A stretch of DNA of 64,000 nt, taken from contig CAZIDP010000003.1 in the NCBI GenBank assembly GCA_964537975.1, positions 74,182 through 138,181 of the forward strand, written 5' to 3'. Source of the DNA: an uncultured Nitrospirales bacterium (lineage in GTDB: Bacteria; Hydrogenedentota; Hydrogenedentia; Hydrogenedentales; SCBR16-9). Below the pieces are notes generated by a model. It worked only from the letters and a program-made list of their open reading frames with translations, did not search any database and was not told the origin of the DNA. The translations under genes were made by a program, and so were the position numbers. Below are positions 11,554-28,409 of this stretch, piece by piece (the first letter of the stretch is position 1; each line of letters opens with the position of its first letter).

Positions 11554-13017
<1,464 letters not shown>

Positions 13018-13039: not shown

Positions 13040-13915
13040 TTACAACGCTTCCGCGCCACTGACAACTTCTATGAGTTGCGTGGTTATAGCATCTTGACGT
13101 ACCCGGTTGTATTGCAAAGTTAATCGCTCTATCATCTCACCTGCATTACGAGTAGCAGAATCCATTGCCGTCATTCGCGCACCAAACTCACTGGCAGCCG
13201 ATTCAAATAGTATGCGATGCATTTGTATTTCAAGATTTTTCAGAAGGAGTGCTTCAAACACACTCTCTTGATCGGGTTCATATATATAATCCAGTGGTAA
13301 AGTATTTCCACCATTAATATCATCTTCATTTTCAGAAATGAACGGCAGCAACCGCTCCAAAGTAGTTGTTTGCTGAACTGCTGATCTGAATTCATTATAC
13401 ATACAATACATTGACGAAAGATTCTCTTCAAGAAACTCCTTCACAACATTTTCGATTATCCATTGAGAAGTGCGGTAAACTGAACGGTCCAACTGACCGG
13501 GAAAAGTGGCGTGTATTGGATATCCACGACGTTTAAGAATGTCTATCCCTTTGCGTCCAACCACCACCAGCATTACATCATTATCTTTGAAACGTCCATC
13601 TAATAAACGTATTGCGTCATTAACGAGTGATGCGTTAAACCCCCCGCACAAACCACGATCAGATGTGATTAATACCAGTCCTATTTTGTTTTCTGGTCTT
13701 TGCTCCAAAAGGGGATGCATCGCACCTTGTGCCCGATTGGCAATTTCATTAACCAAATCCCGCATGTGGTAGGCATAGGGTCGTGCTTGAATTATAGATT
13801 CCTGTGCACGACGAAGCTTTGACGCAGCCACCATTTTCATGGCACGTGTAATTTTTTGGGTGCTCTGTACGCTTTTAATGCGTCGCTTTATGTCTCGCAA
13901 ATTCGCCATTGACAA
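13040..13915 (-). CDS. atpG: F1Fo ATP synthase gamma subunit
   Basis: 291 aa with a typical AtpG N-terminus (MANLRDIKRRIKSVQSTQKITRAMKMVAASKLRRAQ). Confidence 0.9.
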   Translation of the reverse strand: MSMANLRDIKRRIKSVQSTQKITRAMKMVAASKLRRAQESIIQARPYAYHMRDLVNEIANRAQGAMHPLLEQRPENKIGLVLITSDRGLCGGFNASLVNDAIRLLDGRFKDNDVMLVVVGRKGIDILKRRGYPIHATFPGQLDRSVYRTSQWIIENVVKEFLEENLSSMYCMYNEFRSAVQQTTTLERLLPFISENEDDINGGNTLPLDYIYEPDQESVFEALLLKNLEIQMHRILFESAASEFGARMTAMDSATRNAGEMIERLTLQYNRVRQDAITTQLIEVVSGAEAL

Positions 13916-13991: not shown

Positions 13992-15533
<1,542 letters not shown>

Positions 15534-15655: not shown

Positions 15656-16198
15656 TTAATTTGAACTCAACAATTCTTCGCGAAGATGTTGTAACCTGTT
15701 TTGTACACTTCCATCAATACGCATACTACCGATTTGTGCTACAACACCACCCAAAATTTCGGGATTTACTTCACAATACAGGTGAACACTACACCCGCAA
15801 TACTGTTCTAAAGAATCATTGAGTGATTGCTTTTGTTCTTCTGAAAGCGGAAGAGCTGTAGTAATTACGGCACGTGCCCGATGCTGAACATCATCGGCCA
15901 TTATGGAAAACACACGGGCAATATCAGATAAAATTCGGATACGTCCCTTGCGTATTAATAAATCAGCTAAATTGATCAGAATACTGGCAAACCCACCCTT
16001 AGATAATATCTCTCTAAGAATCTGGCTGCGAACTGAACTGCTGATTGCGTTGTTATATAGTATGTTGCTTACTTCTGGATGTTCAGCTACCATTTGTGCC
16101 ATATCCGTAAGGGACATATCTATATTGTCTAACTCGGTAACTTCAAGTGATCCAATCAGACCACCGGCATATCTTTCAGCCAGGAGAAAATTTTTCAT
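15656..16198 (-). CDS. atpH: F1Fo ATP synthase delta (OSCP) subunit
   Basis: 180 aa with an OSCP-like helical pattern. It overlaps atpF by 4 nt. Confidence 0.8.
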   Translation of the reverse strand: MKNFLLAERYAGGLIGSLEVTELDNIDMSLTDMAQMVAEHPEVSNILYNNAISSSVRSQILREILSKGGFASILINLADLLIRKGRIRILSDIARVFSIMADDVQHRARAVITTALPLSEEQKQSLNDSLEQYCGCSVHLYCEVNPEILGGVVAQIGSMRIDGSVQNRLQHLREELLSSN

Positions 16199-17399: not shown

Positions 17400-17572
17400 G
17401 TTGTAACCTTGAGTAGGTATTCCTCCAAGACATTAAAACGAAAAATTCACTTAAAAAAAGCCAGTATGGTCACAAAACATTATAGCGTATAACCATAATG
17501 TAATATTATGACCCAATCCAAAGTATGTGCCGAAAAAGCTAAAGCACACATATAAAATTGCTTTGAAAAATT

Positions 17573-17902
17573 CTACGCCACAACAAAGAGAATCAGTAAG
17601 GCCATAACCAATGAATATATACCAGTAGATTCAGAAACAGCCTGACCAATAAGCATGGTTCGTGTCAATAATCCGGCTTCTTGTGGTGTGCGTCCGATTG
17701 CTTCACACGCTTTACCAGCAGCAAATCCCTGCCCAATGCCAGGTCCGATTGCGCCAAACCCCATACAAATACCTGCACCTATCAATGAGCCGGCAGTAAT
17801 AAGGTCTTGACCGGAAATACTGGCAGTTGCTGTGGTTGCTGTGGTTTCTGCTACTTGTGAAGTCATAGTATTCAATACTGTAAGAATAGTTGTCGGGTCC
17901 AT
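17573..17902 (-). CDS. atpE: F1Fo ATP synthase c subunit (canonical hairpin) with Na+-binding signature
   Basis: 109 aa. Helix 1 is [11 protein letters not shown] and helix 2 is [22 protein letters not shown]. This is the Q/E-S-T/Y constellation of Na+-translocating c subunits. A ~35-50 aa N-terminal extension precedes the hairpin. Confidence 0.9.
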
Positions 17903-18027
17903 GATCTATCTACTTCCTTTCATTTAAAGGTGATCACACTGAAGAAACGGCGTGTGTTCGTACATACTAAAATTTTTAAACAATAAAGACCAATGTATAT
18001 TAGGCAGTATTTAACATACACCTGAAC

Positions 18028-20545: not shown

Positions 20546-20664
20546 TCCCGTGAGTAACGTTTAAAAGTATATCATTTCATTCTGAATACAGTCAAATTGA
20601 GAAAATGATAAAATCCAGTAAAAGGGGAGAACGATTCCTGCAAAACCGGTTCGAAATAATGCTT

Positions 20665-22352: not shown

Positions 22353-24710
22353 ATGATTAATCTCGCTGAAAATATATCACGATCTCAGAAAGTTTTTTGT
22401 GCATTATTGTGGATCGTTTTGGCTGTTTCATGCTCCGAACGGACTGTGTTTGCAGCAGATCATTCGTTTCTATTATTGGAGCAGACAACCAATCTTGTCG
22501 GTGCTGCGGAACGTCTTTACATGTTGGAAATGCGATCTGGTGAAATAGCATCAAATCCTATGCCATTGCATGGTACAGAACCAATTGGTGATATCATACT
22601 TACAGAAAGTGGGAGGTATGGTGTCATTACAACCGGTTTGCCCTGGTTCGGTGAAGCTCCTTCTTTGCAACATACCTGGACATACACAACAGCTTTTGAA
22701 ACTAAACCTTTACGCGCCATTAAACAACCTCCATTTTTGGGTGAGACCGGTATACGCACTGTAATTTCCGAGATTCATGAACGGCAAAATGTCTTCCCCC
22801 CGGAATGGATTTTCATGACGCAGGGAACTGATGACAGGGGACAGGGAAAGGGGGAGTTAGGGCTGCTTTCTAATTTTAATGGTGGTTTTGAAACACATCA
22901 TGATATTCCAGGGCAACCCCTTCAGTTGCTATTGCTTCCTGAATCCAATAGCATTCCGGAACAAGTGGCTGTGTTATATCGGCATACAGATACACGCGCG
23001 CCGATGCTGCGTATCTTGTCACCAGAAACAGGCTTGATTTATATTGAACACGCCATACAAGATAAATTAGAAATAAACGGTAAGACCGAGATAGCGCAAA
23101 TAAGCATCTCATCTGATGGCCTTCATATTTGGGTTGCTGTTTCCGGTTTTGATCTTACCCGTACCGGGGAGTTCGCAGTTACATGGGTTGCCGCGTATGA
23201 ATATCTCGCTGATCAATGGACAACCCCAGTCCAGATTACAGGTATGGCATTTGGCAACACACCTGTACTCTATCCATCAGGAACAACTGCAAGCTGGATC
23301 ACAACGCGGTTACCTGGCGCTCAGTTTGGCTATGTTGTTTTACTTGAATTATCGCACAACACAGGTCAAGTAAAAGCATTACATAAAGTTGAACAATATG
23401 CGCTCACCAATATTGATGCACCAATTTTATTGTCAGTGAACACCAGATCGAAGGATGTTGCAGTCGCCTGGGGGAACCGACTGGAAATATGGCCAGACGG
23501 TAAGCGAGGAGCATTGGAAAGTAACCATTTCCAGACAGATGTTGATTTTATACAATTGCTGCGTTCCGAAAACGAATTATTCGCGCTAACCCAACAAACG
23601 TTATATCACTTGGATTCTAATACAAATCGTCTATCTGAAGTATATGTTTCAAACAATAGAAATTTGGTGAGGGCAATACCCCTTCCAAAAGGCAATGGAG
23701 AGGTATATTGGGACATTGAAGACAACGACAGATCAGTGCAATTAAATACTCCTGCTACCTTACATTTTCGCGGTGAAGCGGCTGGTCGCGAACTGCAAGA
23801 AATCCATATTCATCCGGTAGGACCAGGTGCCGCTGAAGCAATTTGGCGCATTCATTATGATCAGGAAGCCATGCCCTGGTTGCGCTTACATCCACGTTCA
23901 GGACGGGGGTCAGGATTTGTCTACACAGGTATTGACCCCGGTTTGTATGAACCAGAGAAACCGCTTCAAGGGCTCCTGGAGGTGACACTTGAGGCTCCGG
24001 ACGATACACTTTTTATAACAAATTCACCATCCTATATTGTTATACAAGTGTCACCACCGGCATCTTCTGTTTTGCGTGTACTTTGGGTATGGCCTGAAGA
24101 ATCCAATGTTGGATTTCGTTCAACCAAGGACCCTTGGTCAATGAAAAAACTGGGTGATATGCTCGCGGCAGCACCACATTACATGTCACATCGTGAAGTA
24201 TTTGGATCCTTCCAGGATAGCCTGTCTCCATATGCCATAGTGGTCATCGGTATACGTGCAGCTTTGGCAGGGGGATTAACGCGCCAAGCACTTCTGGAAT
24301 ATGTACAGGCAGGAGGTGCTTTGTTTTTAATAGGTGAATATTTAGAAGATACTGTGGACCCGGCCTTACAACGTTGGCTTGGTGGTGTTGGAATACAAAT
24401 TCATGCAGAATCCTCTGTTGAAGATAAAATAGGTACCATTGATGTAGCCCAGGAAATTGTGCTTCCCTGGTCTGAACAATTAACTGTGCAGGGGTGTCTT
24501 ATACAAGCCAGTGCACCCGTGATACAATTTTCTGCAATGTCCGATTCCAACATTTCGTTATTTTCTGCTGCTGAATATGGCTTGGGGCGTGTTGCTGTAT
24601 TGGCAGGTCCCACACCACTCGAAAGCAGTGTTGTGCAAAATGAAGCTAACCGTCGATTTGCTGAATCCCTGTTTCGTTGGTTGTCACGTGCCGGAATGGA
24701 TGGCGAGTAA
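22353..24710 (+). CDS. Large secreted hypothetical protein, C-terminal domain possibly class-I glutamine-amidotransferase-like (ThuA/DUF4159-type)
   Basis: 785 aa with a signal peptide (LLWIVLAVSCSERTVFA). The C-terminal segment (YAIVVIGIRAALAGGLTRQALLEYVQAGGALFLIGEY) resembles a GATase1-like fold. No recognizable catalytic motif is seen. Confidence 0.45.
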   Translation: MINLAENISRSQKVFCALLWIVLAVSCSERTVFAADHSFLLLEQTTNLVGAAERLYMLEMRSGEIASNPMPLHGTEPIGDIILTESGRYGVITTGLPWFGEAPSLQHTWTYTTAFETKPLRAIKQPPFLGETGIRTVISEIHERQNVFPPEWIFMTQGTDDRGQGKGELGLLSNFNGGFETHHDIPGQPLQLLLLPESNSIPEQVAVLYRHTDTRAPMLRILSPETGLIYIEHAIQDKLEINGKTEIAQISISSDGLHIWVAVSGFDLTRTGEFAVTWVAAYEYLADQWTTPVQITGMAFGNTPVLYPSGTTASWITTRLPGAQFGYVVLLELSHNTGQVKALHKVEQYALTNIDAPILLSVNTRSKDVAVAWGNRLEIWPDGKRGALESNHFQTDVDFIQLLRSENELFALTQQTLYHLDSNTNRLSEVYVSNNRNLVRAIPLPKGNGEVYWDIEDNDRSVQLNTPATLHFRGEAAGRELQEIHIHPVGPGAAEAIWRIHYDQEAMPWLRLHPRSGRGSGFVYTGIDPGLYEPEKPLQGLLEVTLEAPDDTLFITNSPSYIVIQVSPPASSVLRVLWVWPEESNVGFRSTKDPWSMKKLGDMLAAAPHYMSHREVFGSFQDSLSPYAIVVIGIRAALAGGLTRQALLEYVQAGGALFLIGEYLEDTVDPALQRWLGGVGIQIHAESSVEDKIGTIDVAQEIVLPWSEQLTVQGCLIQASAPVIQFSAMSDSNISLFSAAEYGLGRVAVLAGPTPLESSVVQNEANRRFAESLFRWLSRAGMDGE

Positions 24711-26492: not shown

Positions 26493-28082
26493 TCAACGTG
26501 CGGCAAAAAGTGTTTCATATATTTGGCGATTACGGGAATTAGGACTTCCCATCAACTCTACCGGACCTGGCCAGGCACGCATGGACTCAACTATCTCGGT
26601 AGACAATCCATTCAGGCTGTCTGCCTGGAGTCTGACCGGGCCAGGTGTAACAGCATAAGTCGACATATGTTTAATGATTCGTCCTACATTGTTCCAGTCC
26701 AGAATCTCCGGGTTGATGACCAATGAAGCCGTGGGCAAAATTGACTTATCTGCAGCAAATGAGCGTGCGTGAGTAAATGCCAAGTGGTCTGCTTGTGAAC
26801 GGGTCATGTTAAATTTTACCAACAGAGAATCTGGAATATGTGAAGCTTCAATCACTATAAAATCGAATCCCCAGCCAAGAATGGTCTTTATTCGAGATTC
26901 ATACAAAGCCAGTGCATTTTGATCGCTTAAATTCAACCAAGCCTGTCCATCATCAGATAGCATAACCCCCGAGGATTCACTACTTTTTATTGTAAGTGGG
27001 TCGATTATAATGCCGGGCGAAACCTTTGCGTCCCGTAATGATTTGGCGGCTTGTGCCATATTTCGAGGGAACAAAGGTGTTGCGCCTTCTAAAGAGCCTG
27101 GAATGCCTTCCCAATTACCTGGTATAAGTGCATGGCGTATTCCATAGGGCCGCCAGGCTTCAGTCTGCCGTAACAAGGTATCCAAACCTTCATTATCTTG
27201 TACAGCGATCCATACCGGAGGCGCTTTTGCAAGAATACTGTTAGTACCTAGCGTACTGAAAAACCAGGAATAGTTTAAATCAACATTATCACGGTCCGGG
27301 TCTCCAAATGATAGCCATATGGCATCGGAAACCAGACTTTCACCTGGCTTCAACGGGTAATTCGGCTCATATACACAACTGATTTCTCCCATCCAGGTTC
27401 CGCCATGAGGTTGGAAATCAATTCCAGATCGCGCTTCTCCCCGAGGTAAGATTCCCATGGCAAGTAATATTTCTCGATCCGGTTCATGAAACAGCGTCAA
27501 CATAGATTGTTGGCCCTGATCGAAAATTGGCGAACCACCTCGAACATGAACATTTTGGTGATGAATCTTAGCTGTGGTATCACGTAAGTGAACTGCACCA
27601 GGTTGGAAAACAACCGGGTTCAGCTTTTGTATAGGAATAATATCTTGCGAGACATTATCCACCCGTAAGGTAATCATTTGAAAGCCACGATCCTTAAAAC
27701 TTGTGATACTATGGTTGATTTGGAGACCGTCCAGTGGTGGAAATACGACATTAAAATTGGTTCCAGGACTACGTTCATGGTCAAAATTAACTCTGTGTGC
27801 GTCTGCCCTTTCGAGGTGGTCTGCTCTTATGATCGTACCACTGCCCAACGTTACCGAAAATCCTACTTCTTCAACTACCGGGGTGCCAGTTTTGTCATTA
27901 AGAGTCCAGGCAGCATCCTCTTCACAATACAATATCGAACCGGTCGCAGTTCGAAAGGTATAATGATTGCGTAAAGTCCAAGGAAGTTTTTCTGGAAGTG
28001 GTTGGGCTACTAATGTGTGGTTAGGAAACAACAGAAAAACAACAAGAATCAAGATAACTCCTGTTATAATTCTGTGCTTCAT
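26493..28082 (-). CDS. Secreted hypothetical protein (possible TIM-barrel glycosidase-like)
   Basis: The internal Met (MKHRIITGVILILVVFLLF..AQ) gives a clean signal peptide, so the start was trimmed by arithmetic from the track ORF 26493..28166. The function is not recognisable by eye. Confidence 0.45.
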   Translation of the reverse strand: MKHRIITGVILILVVFLLFPNHTLVAQPLPEKLPWTLRNHYTFRTATGSILYCEEDAAWTLNDKTGTPVVEEVGFSVTLGSGTIIRADHLERADAHRVNFDHERSPGTNFNVVFPPLDGLQINHSITSFKDRGFQMITLRVDNVSQDIIPIQKLNPVVFQPGAVHLRDTTAKIHHQNVHVRGGSPIFDQGQQSMLTLFHEPDREILLAMGILPRGEARSGIDFQPHGGTWMGEISCVYEPNYPLKPGESLVSDAIWLSFGDPDRDNVDLNYSWFFSTLGTNSILAKAPPVWIAVQDNEGLDTLLRQTEAWRPYGIRHALIPGNWEGIPGSLEGATPLFPRNMAQAAKSLRDAKVSPGIIIDPLTIKSSESSGVMLSDDGQAWLNLSDQNALALYESRIKTILGWGFDFIVIEASHIPDSLLVKFNMTRSQADHLAFTHARSFAADKSILPTASLVINPEILDWNNVGRIIKHMSTYAVTPGPVRLQADSLNGLSTEIVESMRAWPGPVELMGSPNSRNRQIYETLFAAR

Positions 28083-28409
28083 CAATGCACATGGATTTAT
28101 CAAGTCACGTGAATTACTTTCCTGGAATTTGAAAAATTGCAAGATATTCAACGGAAAAGTCAGCATTTTTGATCTCCGAACTTAATAATTTGGGGTACTT
28201 GGTTAACAGAGGTTATAATTAAATGGAATTTTTTGATTCTTTAATCAGCGCAACATTAATGCCGATTATACACGAAATCTGGTAATTCAATAAAGAATAA
28301 CGCTAGATATCGTAGTACTTACCAAAATTTTACTTTAGTCTTCCATTTACATATTTTCAGATACAGGTACTTGGCAATAAGTTAATGATTTATCATAGAC
28401 AGGAGCAAT

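Follow-up and report, generated by a model that had tools for sequence, protein, structure and literature searches.

The number of ion sites that a rotary ATPase carries on its c-ring sets the ion-to-ATP ratio, the gear ratio of cellular bioenergetics, and to our knowledge the sole characterised F-type ring with a missing site is that of the Acetobacterium woodii type, in which one in eleven is lost. All Na+ F-type rings characterised so far have 11 hairpins (PMC3692424), and their Na+ site is split over two adjacent subunits, with Glu/Gln32 and Glu65 coming from one and the Val63 carbonyl and Ser66 from its neighbour; Thr67 holds a water molecule, and Ser66 and Tyr70 hydrogen-bond Glu65 (PMC3692424; site positions are given in Ilyobacter tartaricus numbering). 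Na+ transport has been found only for c subunits carrying the full set of Na+ ligands, and the combination of a helix-1 Glu with ESTxxY occurs in only ~1% of 4084 Pfam c subunits (PMC2881411). Here we describe a c subunit with the full ligand set (encoded by atpE), together with a second, fused c subunit of four hairpins (c4) encoded next to it, in a 64,000-nucleotide stretch of DNA (positions 74,182 to 138,181 of contig CAZIDP010000003.1, GenBank assembly GCA_964537975.1; hereafter the window, from whose first letter all positions are counted) that carries the label of an uncultured Nitrospirales bacterium and is placed by GTDB in Hydrogenedentota. From its sequence, the ion site of the single-hairpin c subunit is well supported as a Na+ site, with Na+ coupling of the enzyme, and it is probable, in our judgement, that this protein works as a Na+-binding rotor subunit in an F1Fo enzyme whose ring is a hybrid.

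The presence of Na+-NQR, Rnf, and F- and V/A-type ATPases in Hydrogenedentota has been covered previously, with Na+-NQR or Rnf being common in their genomes, and the c-subunit motif has not (PMC11406978); our full-text literature searches returned no published statement on ATPase ion specificity or Na+ coupling in this phylum. With the c subunit described here, the few bacteria whose F-type ATP synthase runs on Na+ would come to include members of an uncultured and little-known phylum, and it bears on how Hydrogenedentota conserve energy alongside Rnf and Na+-NQR.

A single-hairpin c subunit with a putative Na+ site

The atpE open reading frame (ORF) encodes 109 amino acids followed by a stop codon and starts at an ATG, with AAAGGAAG 10 nucleotides upstream. 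Its product is a single-hairpin member of the F-type subunit c family: it scores above the cut-offs of Pfam ATP-synt_C (PF00137; 1.6e-18, 67.1 bits, cut-off 24) and NCBIfam TIGR01260 (58.2, cut-off 43.95), forms a two-helix hairpin in the AlphaFold2 (AF2) model (helices at residues 31–69 and 78–108) and has the helix-2 carboxylate, E91, equivalent to E65. An earlier note on this DNA had quoted one string in each helix as a complete Na+-binding signature. Both strings are present, the first within GPGIGQGF at residues 53–60 and the second at residues 88–98; their codons were read from the DNA (Q58, ctg on the forward strand and thus CAG; E91, GAA at 17630–17632; Ser, TCT; Thr, ACT; Y96, TAT at 17615–17617), and the residues lie exactly on the Na+-ligand positions.

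In a MAFFT alignment and in phmmer alignments to PDB entries 1yce, 3zk1 and 4bem, Q58, V89, E91, S92, T93 and Y96 were in register with I. tartaricus Q32, V63, E65, S66, T67 and Y70, respectively. The first shell of ligands is therefore complete (Gln/Glu32, Glu65, Ser/Thr66, the water-holding Thr67, Tyr70 and the Val63 carbonyl), and the sole deviation in the first and second shells is a Ser instead of Ala at position 64. The alignment against structurally characterised Na+ and H+ c subunits that had been proposed as a check on the signature thus came out in its favour, with the Na+ rings as the best matches. When all PDB chains were searched with phmmer, the top four matches were the four structurally characterised Na+-binding F-type rotor subunits, namely A. 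woodii c1 (4bem_J, 7e-34), A. woodii c2/3 (4.5e-22), I. tartaricus c (1yce, 6.8e-21) and Fusobacterium nucleatum c (3zk1, 3e-20), and H+ rings ranked lower, from 3e-16 downwards.

The site is also conserved. Among 5.8 billion proteins, a search recovered one of identical sequence (P0121) along with hundreds of relatives, and the named ones are labelled Candidatus Hydrogenedentes or Hydrogenedentota. Among the 102 closest single-hairpin homologues (102–113 amino acids), P28, V63, E65, S66, T67 and Y70 were each found in 102/102, and position 32 was Glu in 99 and Gln in three (the c subunit of the window and two near relatives). Both residues are Na+ motifs at this position, since the two-carboxylate motif with Glu32 has been proven in F. 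nucleatum by crystallography and biochemistry, and Gln32 is the motif of I. tartaricus (PMC3692424). The ligands are in register and invariant in the family, every one of the nearest solved relatives forms a Na+ ring, and the gene sits in a full F1Fo operon of canonical type; the sequence is therefore best read as that of a likely Na+-coupled F-type ATPase or ATP synthase, in line with the Na+-coupled F-ATP synthase proposed in the earlier note.

The Ser at position 64 bears on one alternative, namely that the enzyme is effectively H+-coupled in vivo, through a low-Na+ habitat or through second-shell differences of this kind, and a Methanosarcina acetivorans ring with a related motif does use both ions (PMC3692424). 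We regard this as very unlikely, given that the first-shell ligands are all present and invariant, that H+ specificity is not known for any c subunit carrying the complete set (PMC2881411) and that the nearest relatives are all Na+ rings. Subunit a, which carries the essential Arg194 in SISFRLFGN, does not discriminate between the two ions, because its PDB sequence matches included no solved a subunit from a Na+ F-ATPase and because we know of no validated Na+-diagnostic signature in this subunit. Its residue equivalent to Escherichia coli E219 is likewise uninformative, being Ala here and yet Gly in the H+-coupled mycobacterial enzyme.

An unusual N-terminal extension of c, put at some 35–50 residues in the earlier note, proved to be real and conserved in 102/102 homologues, although it is shorter than had been stated: about 25 residues relative to I. 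tartaricus (residue 32 here corresponding to residue 7 there) and about 28 relative to A. woodii c2/3. Its consensus in the 102 homologues is MDPTT.L.V.NT..AQ, with D2, P3, T5 and Q16 nearly or fully invariant, and residues 3–27 are modelled by AF2 as a helix with moderate confidence (pLDDT 84–76 over the first 20 residues). A mis-called start was ruled out as its source, since the extension is kept in sequence and length among the homologues and a strong ribosome-binding site precedes the ATG. On the strength of the conserved sequence and the predicted helix, we consider the extension a real lineage-specific feature; the c ORFs of Desulfobacterota are without it. The N-terminus of c lies on the periplasmic side in the established topology, and the extension would therefore sit at the periplasmic mouth of the ring. 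Subunit b has an N-terminal extension as well, of about 100 residues, in which hydropathy indicates an extra transmembrane (TM) helix (residues ~7–29) and an acidic, His-rich loop of ~70 residues before the canonical TM helix, and which aligns in 28/28 Hydrogenedentota-like loci and 0/42 Desulfobacterota loci. The extensions of b and c co-occur, and both would lie on the periplasmic side.

A fused four-hairpin c subunit and the proposed hybrid rotor

The c4 protein has four PF00137 domains, four hairpins and eight TM helices, and its start at ATG 19005 is fixed by a 325-residue protein of 100% identity (P0001). Its AF2 model comprises eight helices (pLDDT 93, pTM 0.89) and has its best PDB structural match in A. 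woodii c1 (4bem_J, 40% identity, root-mean-square deviation 1.4 Å over two hairpins), followed by Enterococcus hirae NtpK in second place and by eukaryotic V-type proteolipids. In sequence, c4 scores 180 bits with F0F1 subunit C models versus 90 bits with V-type subunit K. Per-hairpin alignment places Gly, Gln, Glu and Gln at the carboxylate position of hairpins 1 to 4. In hairpin 3 the Glu is kept, but positions 32, 67 and 70 are Ser, Pro and Phe, respectively. Hairpin 4, with the sequence V-S-Q-S-T-A-I-Y, has lost the carboxylate and retained Val63, Ser66, Thr67 and Tyr70.

This pattern is highly conserved among the 114 four-hairpin homologues of c4, in which the carboxylate position is G in 91, S in 20 and E in 3 for hairpin 1, Q in 113 for hairpin 2, Q in 63, E in 49 and D in 2 for hairpin 3, and Q in 113 for hairpin 4, the last hairpin keeping S66 in 113, T67 in 109 and Y70 in 110. 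All four hairpins are without a carboxylate in 63 of the 114, and the alternation of Glu and Gln in hairpin 3 across relatives suggests that its site is dispensable. With ~90 invariant columns across 25 diverse sequences, c4 itself is, on this measure, under strong purifying selection.

The pairing of c4 with c recurs widely. The c4 alignment was scanned over 185,579 species genomes and 80 loci were kept, from Hydrogenedentota metagenome-assembled genomes (MAGs; soda-lake and deep-sea ones included), Nitrospirales-labelled MAGs and many Desulfobacterota; soda-lake, marine and deep-sea MAGs are among the sources of the relatives, and the cultured hosts of the gene pair include Desulfosarcina widdelii PP31 (L036), whose cluster reads atpI-a-c4-c-b'-b, and Desulfatitalea alkaliphila M08but (L039). 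These habitats, like the frequent presence of Na+-NQR or Rnf in Hydrogenedentota genomes, speak for Na+ coupling. In every locus that reaches past the fused gene (78/78, out of the 80), a c gene of three, four or five hairpins has as its immediate downstream neighbour a single-hairpin c that carries [E/Q]-V-E-S-T-Y. Versions with three and with five hairpins occur in Desulfobacterota, in which only the first hairpin is active (E32/E65) and all others are dead; the first hairpin is dead in Hydrogenedentota. The last hairpin of the fused protein reads V-Q-S-T-Y in nearly all loci, and internal dead hairpins read Q-[S/T]-P-F.

Since the Na+ site is split between neighbours, a carboxylate-less hairpin that abuts a canonical c must supply V63, S66, T67 and Y70 for the site of that c to function. 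We counted each distinct hairpin pattern once and asked how often the preceding hairpin has an intact S/T-S/T-Y half-site: this was the case for 41/52 carboxylate-bearing and 18/100 carboxylate-free hairpins (30 patterns, odds ratio 17, with counts that are not phylogenetically independent). The association holds in three separate lineages and, as a sequence pattern, fits the published split-site geometry (PMC3692424). The opposite neighbour order for the split site was also considered, and the data argue against it, the association being inverse. In the phmmer alignment, A. woodii c1 has AQTTGIY in hairpin 2 and AETSGIF in hairpin 1. Because c4 hairpin 4 retains V-Q-S-T-Y, it could complete the Na+ site of the adjoining canonical c, the role that the second hairpin has in A. 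woodii c1.

These patterns can be set against the view that the 109-residue c forms a homomeric Na+ ring and that c4 stays outside the rotor, for example as an assembly scaffold, a stator-side element or a subunit for other conditions. A run of site-less hairpins within a ring is mechanistically awkward, and c has a strong Shine-Dalgarno sequence of its own, 125 nucleotides from c4, both of which speak for such a ring. We nevertheless judge it unlikely, because c4 is held under strong purifying selection and its fold is like that of A. woodii c1, a ring member in 4BEM. Besides, if the last hairpin of c4 did not abut a canonical c, it would be difficult to account for the confinement of the S-T-Y half-site to this hairpin and for the neighbour-order association.

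Since c is paired with a largely site-less c4, the rotor is probably a hybrid that carries fewer ions per turn than it has hairpins, and c almost certainly does not act alone. Most likely, c and c4 would assemble into one ring. Na+ would be held between neighbouring hairpins, by Gln58 and Glu91 from one and by the Val89 carbonyl and Ser92 from the adjacent one, with Thr93 positioning a water molecule and Tyr96 locking Glu91; the ion would enter and exit where the ring meets subunit a, at the place of Arg194, and through ring rotation its passage would be linked to the making or hydrolysis of ATP in F1. Hairpin 4 of c4 would supply the neighbour half of the Na+ site for the first canonical c after it. 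Each canonical c would give one full Na+ site and the c4 arc would add at most one degenerate site, leaving fewer Na+ sites than hairpins and a lowered Na+/ATP ratio. Purely as an illustration, an 11-hairpin ring of one c4 and seven c would carry 7–8 ions per 3 ATP, compared with 11 in I. tartaricus and 10 in A. woodii. The Shine-Dalgarno sequence of c is much stronger than that of c4, as might be expected if c were present in more copies.

Several points weigh against this hybrid Na+ rotor. Na+ F-ATPases are able to carry H+ when Na+ is scarce, and the Na+ coupling proposed here is deduced from sequence alone. Pfam scans of the 64-kb window, including 30 further ORFs, revealed no Na+ pump (Rnf, Nqr or decarboxylase). 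The co-assembly of c4 and c is suggested by analogy with A. woodii and by conservation patterns, among them the neighbour-order counts with their shared ancestry. At least two consecutive site-less hairpins would, we infer, be a difficulty for ion-driven rotation against the F1 load. Moreover, an 11-hairpin ring cannot be assumed, because an Ala that is invariant in the family (A51, codon 17750–17752, reverse strand) replaces the first Gly of the helix-1 GxGxGxGxG motif of c, and changes in this motif enlarge I. tartaricus rings (PMC3692424); the ring may thus have more than 11 hairpins.

The same run of dead hairpins raises the question of direction, and the enzyme might be a Na+-coupled one that acts as an ATP-driven Na+ extrusion pump and not as the ATP synthase of the cell, with a Na+/ATP ratio that c4 lowers in the manner of V-type pumps. 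In c4, three of four hairpins are without a carboxylate, as are all four in 63/114 relatives, and site loss in duplicated c subunits is commonly viewed as accompanying the switch to a hydrolase (PMC9171764). A V/A-type ATPase is present in 71% of Hydrogenedentota genomes (PMC11406978), so that ATP could come from another enzyme, and by our reasoning several ion-free hairpins would be passed easily when F1 drives the ring and with difficulty when an ion gradient does. However, ATP is made both by the hybrid-rotor enzyme of A. woodii and by the enzyme of Eubacterium callanderi, which has V-type c subunits only (PMC9171764); the operon is complete and canonically F-type, with epsilon and delta; and FoF1 is found in only 61% of Hydrogenedentota genomes (PMC11406978), so that the two enzymes are not always together. 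On balance, a dedicated extrusion pump seems somewhat unlikely but is a rival to be taken seriously.

Returning to the hybrid Na+ rotor, we tentatively propose, as a possibility that falls a little short of probable, that it represents a new F-type class spanning at least Hydrogenedentota and Desulfobacterota. A fused subunit of 3–5 hairpins would insert 2–4 consecutive ion-free hairpins into a Na+ ring and bring Na+/ATP well below that of any characterised F-type enzyme, and in Hydrogenedentota the c helix and the TM helix and loop of b would form matching periplasm-side extensions. Searchable full text contained no description of bacterial F-type c subunits with at least three hairpins, the subscription-only literature on hybrid rotors lying outside this scope and possibly holding an earlier mention. 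If the proposal is true, a rotor with a run of three or four dead hairpins would put models of torque generation in Fo to the test, and it would bear on the long-standing idea that hairpin duplication and site loss turned synthases into V-type pumps. The largely ion-free four-hairpin partner, conserved over two phyla and in cultured strains, is the part most worth experiment, and the question is directly testable because cultured Desulfosarcinaceae share the architecture and E. coli has already served as a host for the expression of Na+ F1Fo operons.

Two further observations concern the fused proteins and their hosts. An exhaustive HMMER search returned 1240 representatives of fused c proteins, with 2–15 hairpins among the best 150. 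Five giant ones (P0247, P0307, P0299, P0314 and P0318; 631–1139 amino acids, 8–15 hairpins) look like whole rings in one polypeptide; four of them bear a carboxylate in every hairpin and P0314 in 11/12, and a two-hairpin c-type protein (P0159) has Gln at the carboxylate position in both hairpins and no ion site. Separately, MAGs labelled Nitrospirales or Nitrospiraceae (L012, L013, L015, L019–L021, L027 and L028) carry a Hydrogenedentota-type c4 and c operon, at 58–70% identity, which means that the operon was transferred laterally or that the bins carry the wrong taxonomic label.

The operon around the c genes

The operon was annotated from the ORF list, Pfam and NCBIfam, with alpha, gamma and beta called through the genes of locus L001, and its features are collected in Table 1. 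Its genes run in the order Z/Q-like, I, a, c4, c, b', b, delta, alpha, gamma, beta and epsilon. This is the canonical F1Fo order (IBEFHAGDC), with departures only in the two c genes, the b'/b pair and the extra upstream PF09527 gene, and a, c, delta and epsilon each score above the cut-off of the respective generic F-type NCBIfam model.

Table 1 Features of the F1Fo operon and of its c subunit (window positions).
Feature	Position	Strand	Evidence
Promoter-like TTGACT-18-TATACT with extended TG, upstream of the operon's first gene	20566-20595	-	Consensus scan 10/12; pattern match only
AtpZ/AtpQ-like small membrane protein, 81 aa	20300-20545	-	PF09527 1.8e-08; TIGR02230 below cut-off
atpI, 129 aa	19923-20312	-	PF03899 2.7e-11
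atpB, a subunit, 252 aa	19157-19915	-	PF00119 2.8e-42; TIGR01131 110.9 vs cut-off 102.6
Fused c subunit (c4), 325 aa	18028-19005	-	Four PF00137 domains
atpE, c subunit, 109 aa	17573-17902	-	PF00137, TIGR01260
Lineage-specific N-terminal extension of c, residues 1-31	17810-17902	-	Conserved sequence, AF2 helix
Q58 codon of c, putative helix-1 Na+ ligand (I. tartaricus Q32)	17729-17731	-	DNA reading and alignment
Helix-2 part of the putative Na+ site of c, V89-S90-E91-S92-T93-G94-I95-Y96	17615-17638	-	Direct reading and alignment
b' subunit, 143 aa	16968-17399	-	PF00430; NCBIfam B/B' models below cut-offs
b subunit, 258 aa	16195-16971	-	PF00430 over residues 105-230
delta (OSCP) subunit	15656-16198	-	PF00213 6.7e-39; TIGR01145 85.4 vs cut-off 57.5
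alpha subunit	13992-15530	-	ORF; Pfam ATP-synt_ab domains on identical L001 gene
gamma subunit	13040-13915	-	ORF; PF00231 on L001 gene
beta subunit, 466 aa as called in L001 (ORF reaches 13011)	11554-12954	-	ORF; L001
epsilon subunit, 139 aa	11132-11551	-	ORF; TIGR01216 90.5 vs cut-off 67.25

The full Na+ ligand set in c and the presence of a PF09527 gene (AtpQ family) would also suit an N-ATPase, that is, the laterally transferred Na+ "alternate F1Fo" enzyme. However, atpQ is not limited to N-ATPase operons, and the order found here (Z/Q-like, I, B, E4, E, F', F, H, A, G, D, C) differs from the atpDCQRBEFAG of those operons (PMC2881411). Besides, a separate delta and a genuine AtpI are present, the scanned operon proteins included no match to AtpR, and the alternate-F1F0 models score far below their cut-offs for a (TIGR03306, 72.6 against 302), c (TIGR03322, 60.2 against 130.85), b (TIGR03321, 43.3 against 224.7) and epsilon (TIGR03166, 33.6 against 100.1). 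Given the gene order, delta and AtpI, the lack of an AtpR match and these sub-threshold scores, an N-ATPase is excluded for practical purposes.

Non-coding gaps of unusual length flank the c gene, of 125 nucleotides before it (17903–18027) and of 173 nucleotides after it (17400–17572); a scan for terminators found none in either gap, and the 173-nucleotide gap likewise held no attenuator. Elsewhere in the window, two ORFs (22353–24710, forward strand, 785 amino acids; 26493–28166, reverse strand, 557 amino acids) had no Pfam match.

Comparison with known systems

The c subunit resembles those of I. tartaricus and Propionigenium modestum (1yce, 2wgm) in being a single hairpin with an identical first shell, encoded in an F-type operon, and in its nearly identical helix 2 (QAV[A/S]ESTGIYSLV). 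It differs from them in the ~25-residue N-terminal extension, in Ser64 and in the Ala that stands for the first Gly of the helix-1 motif; unlike in these organisms, a second c gene with four hairpins is present, so the ring is probably not homomeric. The c11 ring of F. nucleatum (3zk1; PMC3692424) shares E32/E65/S66/T67/Y70 with 99/102 relatives of the c subunit, whereas position 32 is Gln in the c of the window; the remaining differences are those noted for I. tartaricus.

Multiplication of hairpins together with loss of ion sites is also seen in V-type and archaeal A-type proteolipids, such as E. hirae NtpK (2bl2) and archaeal proteins of 2, 3 or 13 hairpins (PMC9171764). Unlike these, the multiplied subunit described here lies in a bacterial F-type operon beside a canonical c, and its sequence affinity is F-type.

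The F/V-hybrid enzymes of A. woodii and Clostridium aceticum (4bem; PMC7911925) have, as here, a fused c gene directly upstream of a canonical Na+ c, and in both cases Gln replaces the carboxylate in the final hairpin of the fused subunit, where the Ser/Thr-Thr-Tyr half-site is kept. For c and c4 alike, the best match in sequence and structure is A. woodii c1. Thus, the operon has the gene content of an F/V hybrid, with a multi-hairpin c that has lost carboxylates and a single-hairpin Na+ c. In contrast, c4 is not a two-hairpin, 16-kDa V-type-like subunit with an active first and an inactive second hairpin: it has four hairpins (3–5 in relatives) instead of two, and its host belongs to another phylum. 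Moreover, the fused subunit has one degenerate carboxylate or none, and its first hairpin, which is active in A. woodii c1, is dead. The c4 and c pair is therefore a variant of the A. woodii-type hybrid and not the same architecture.

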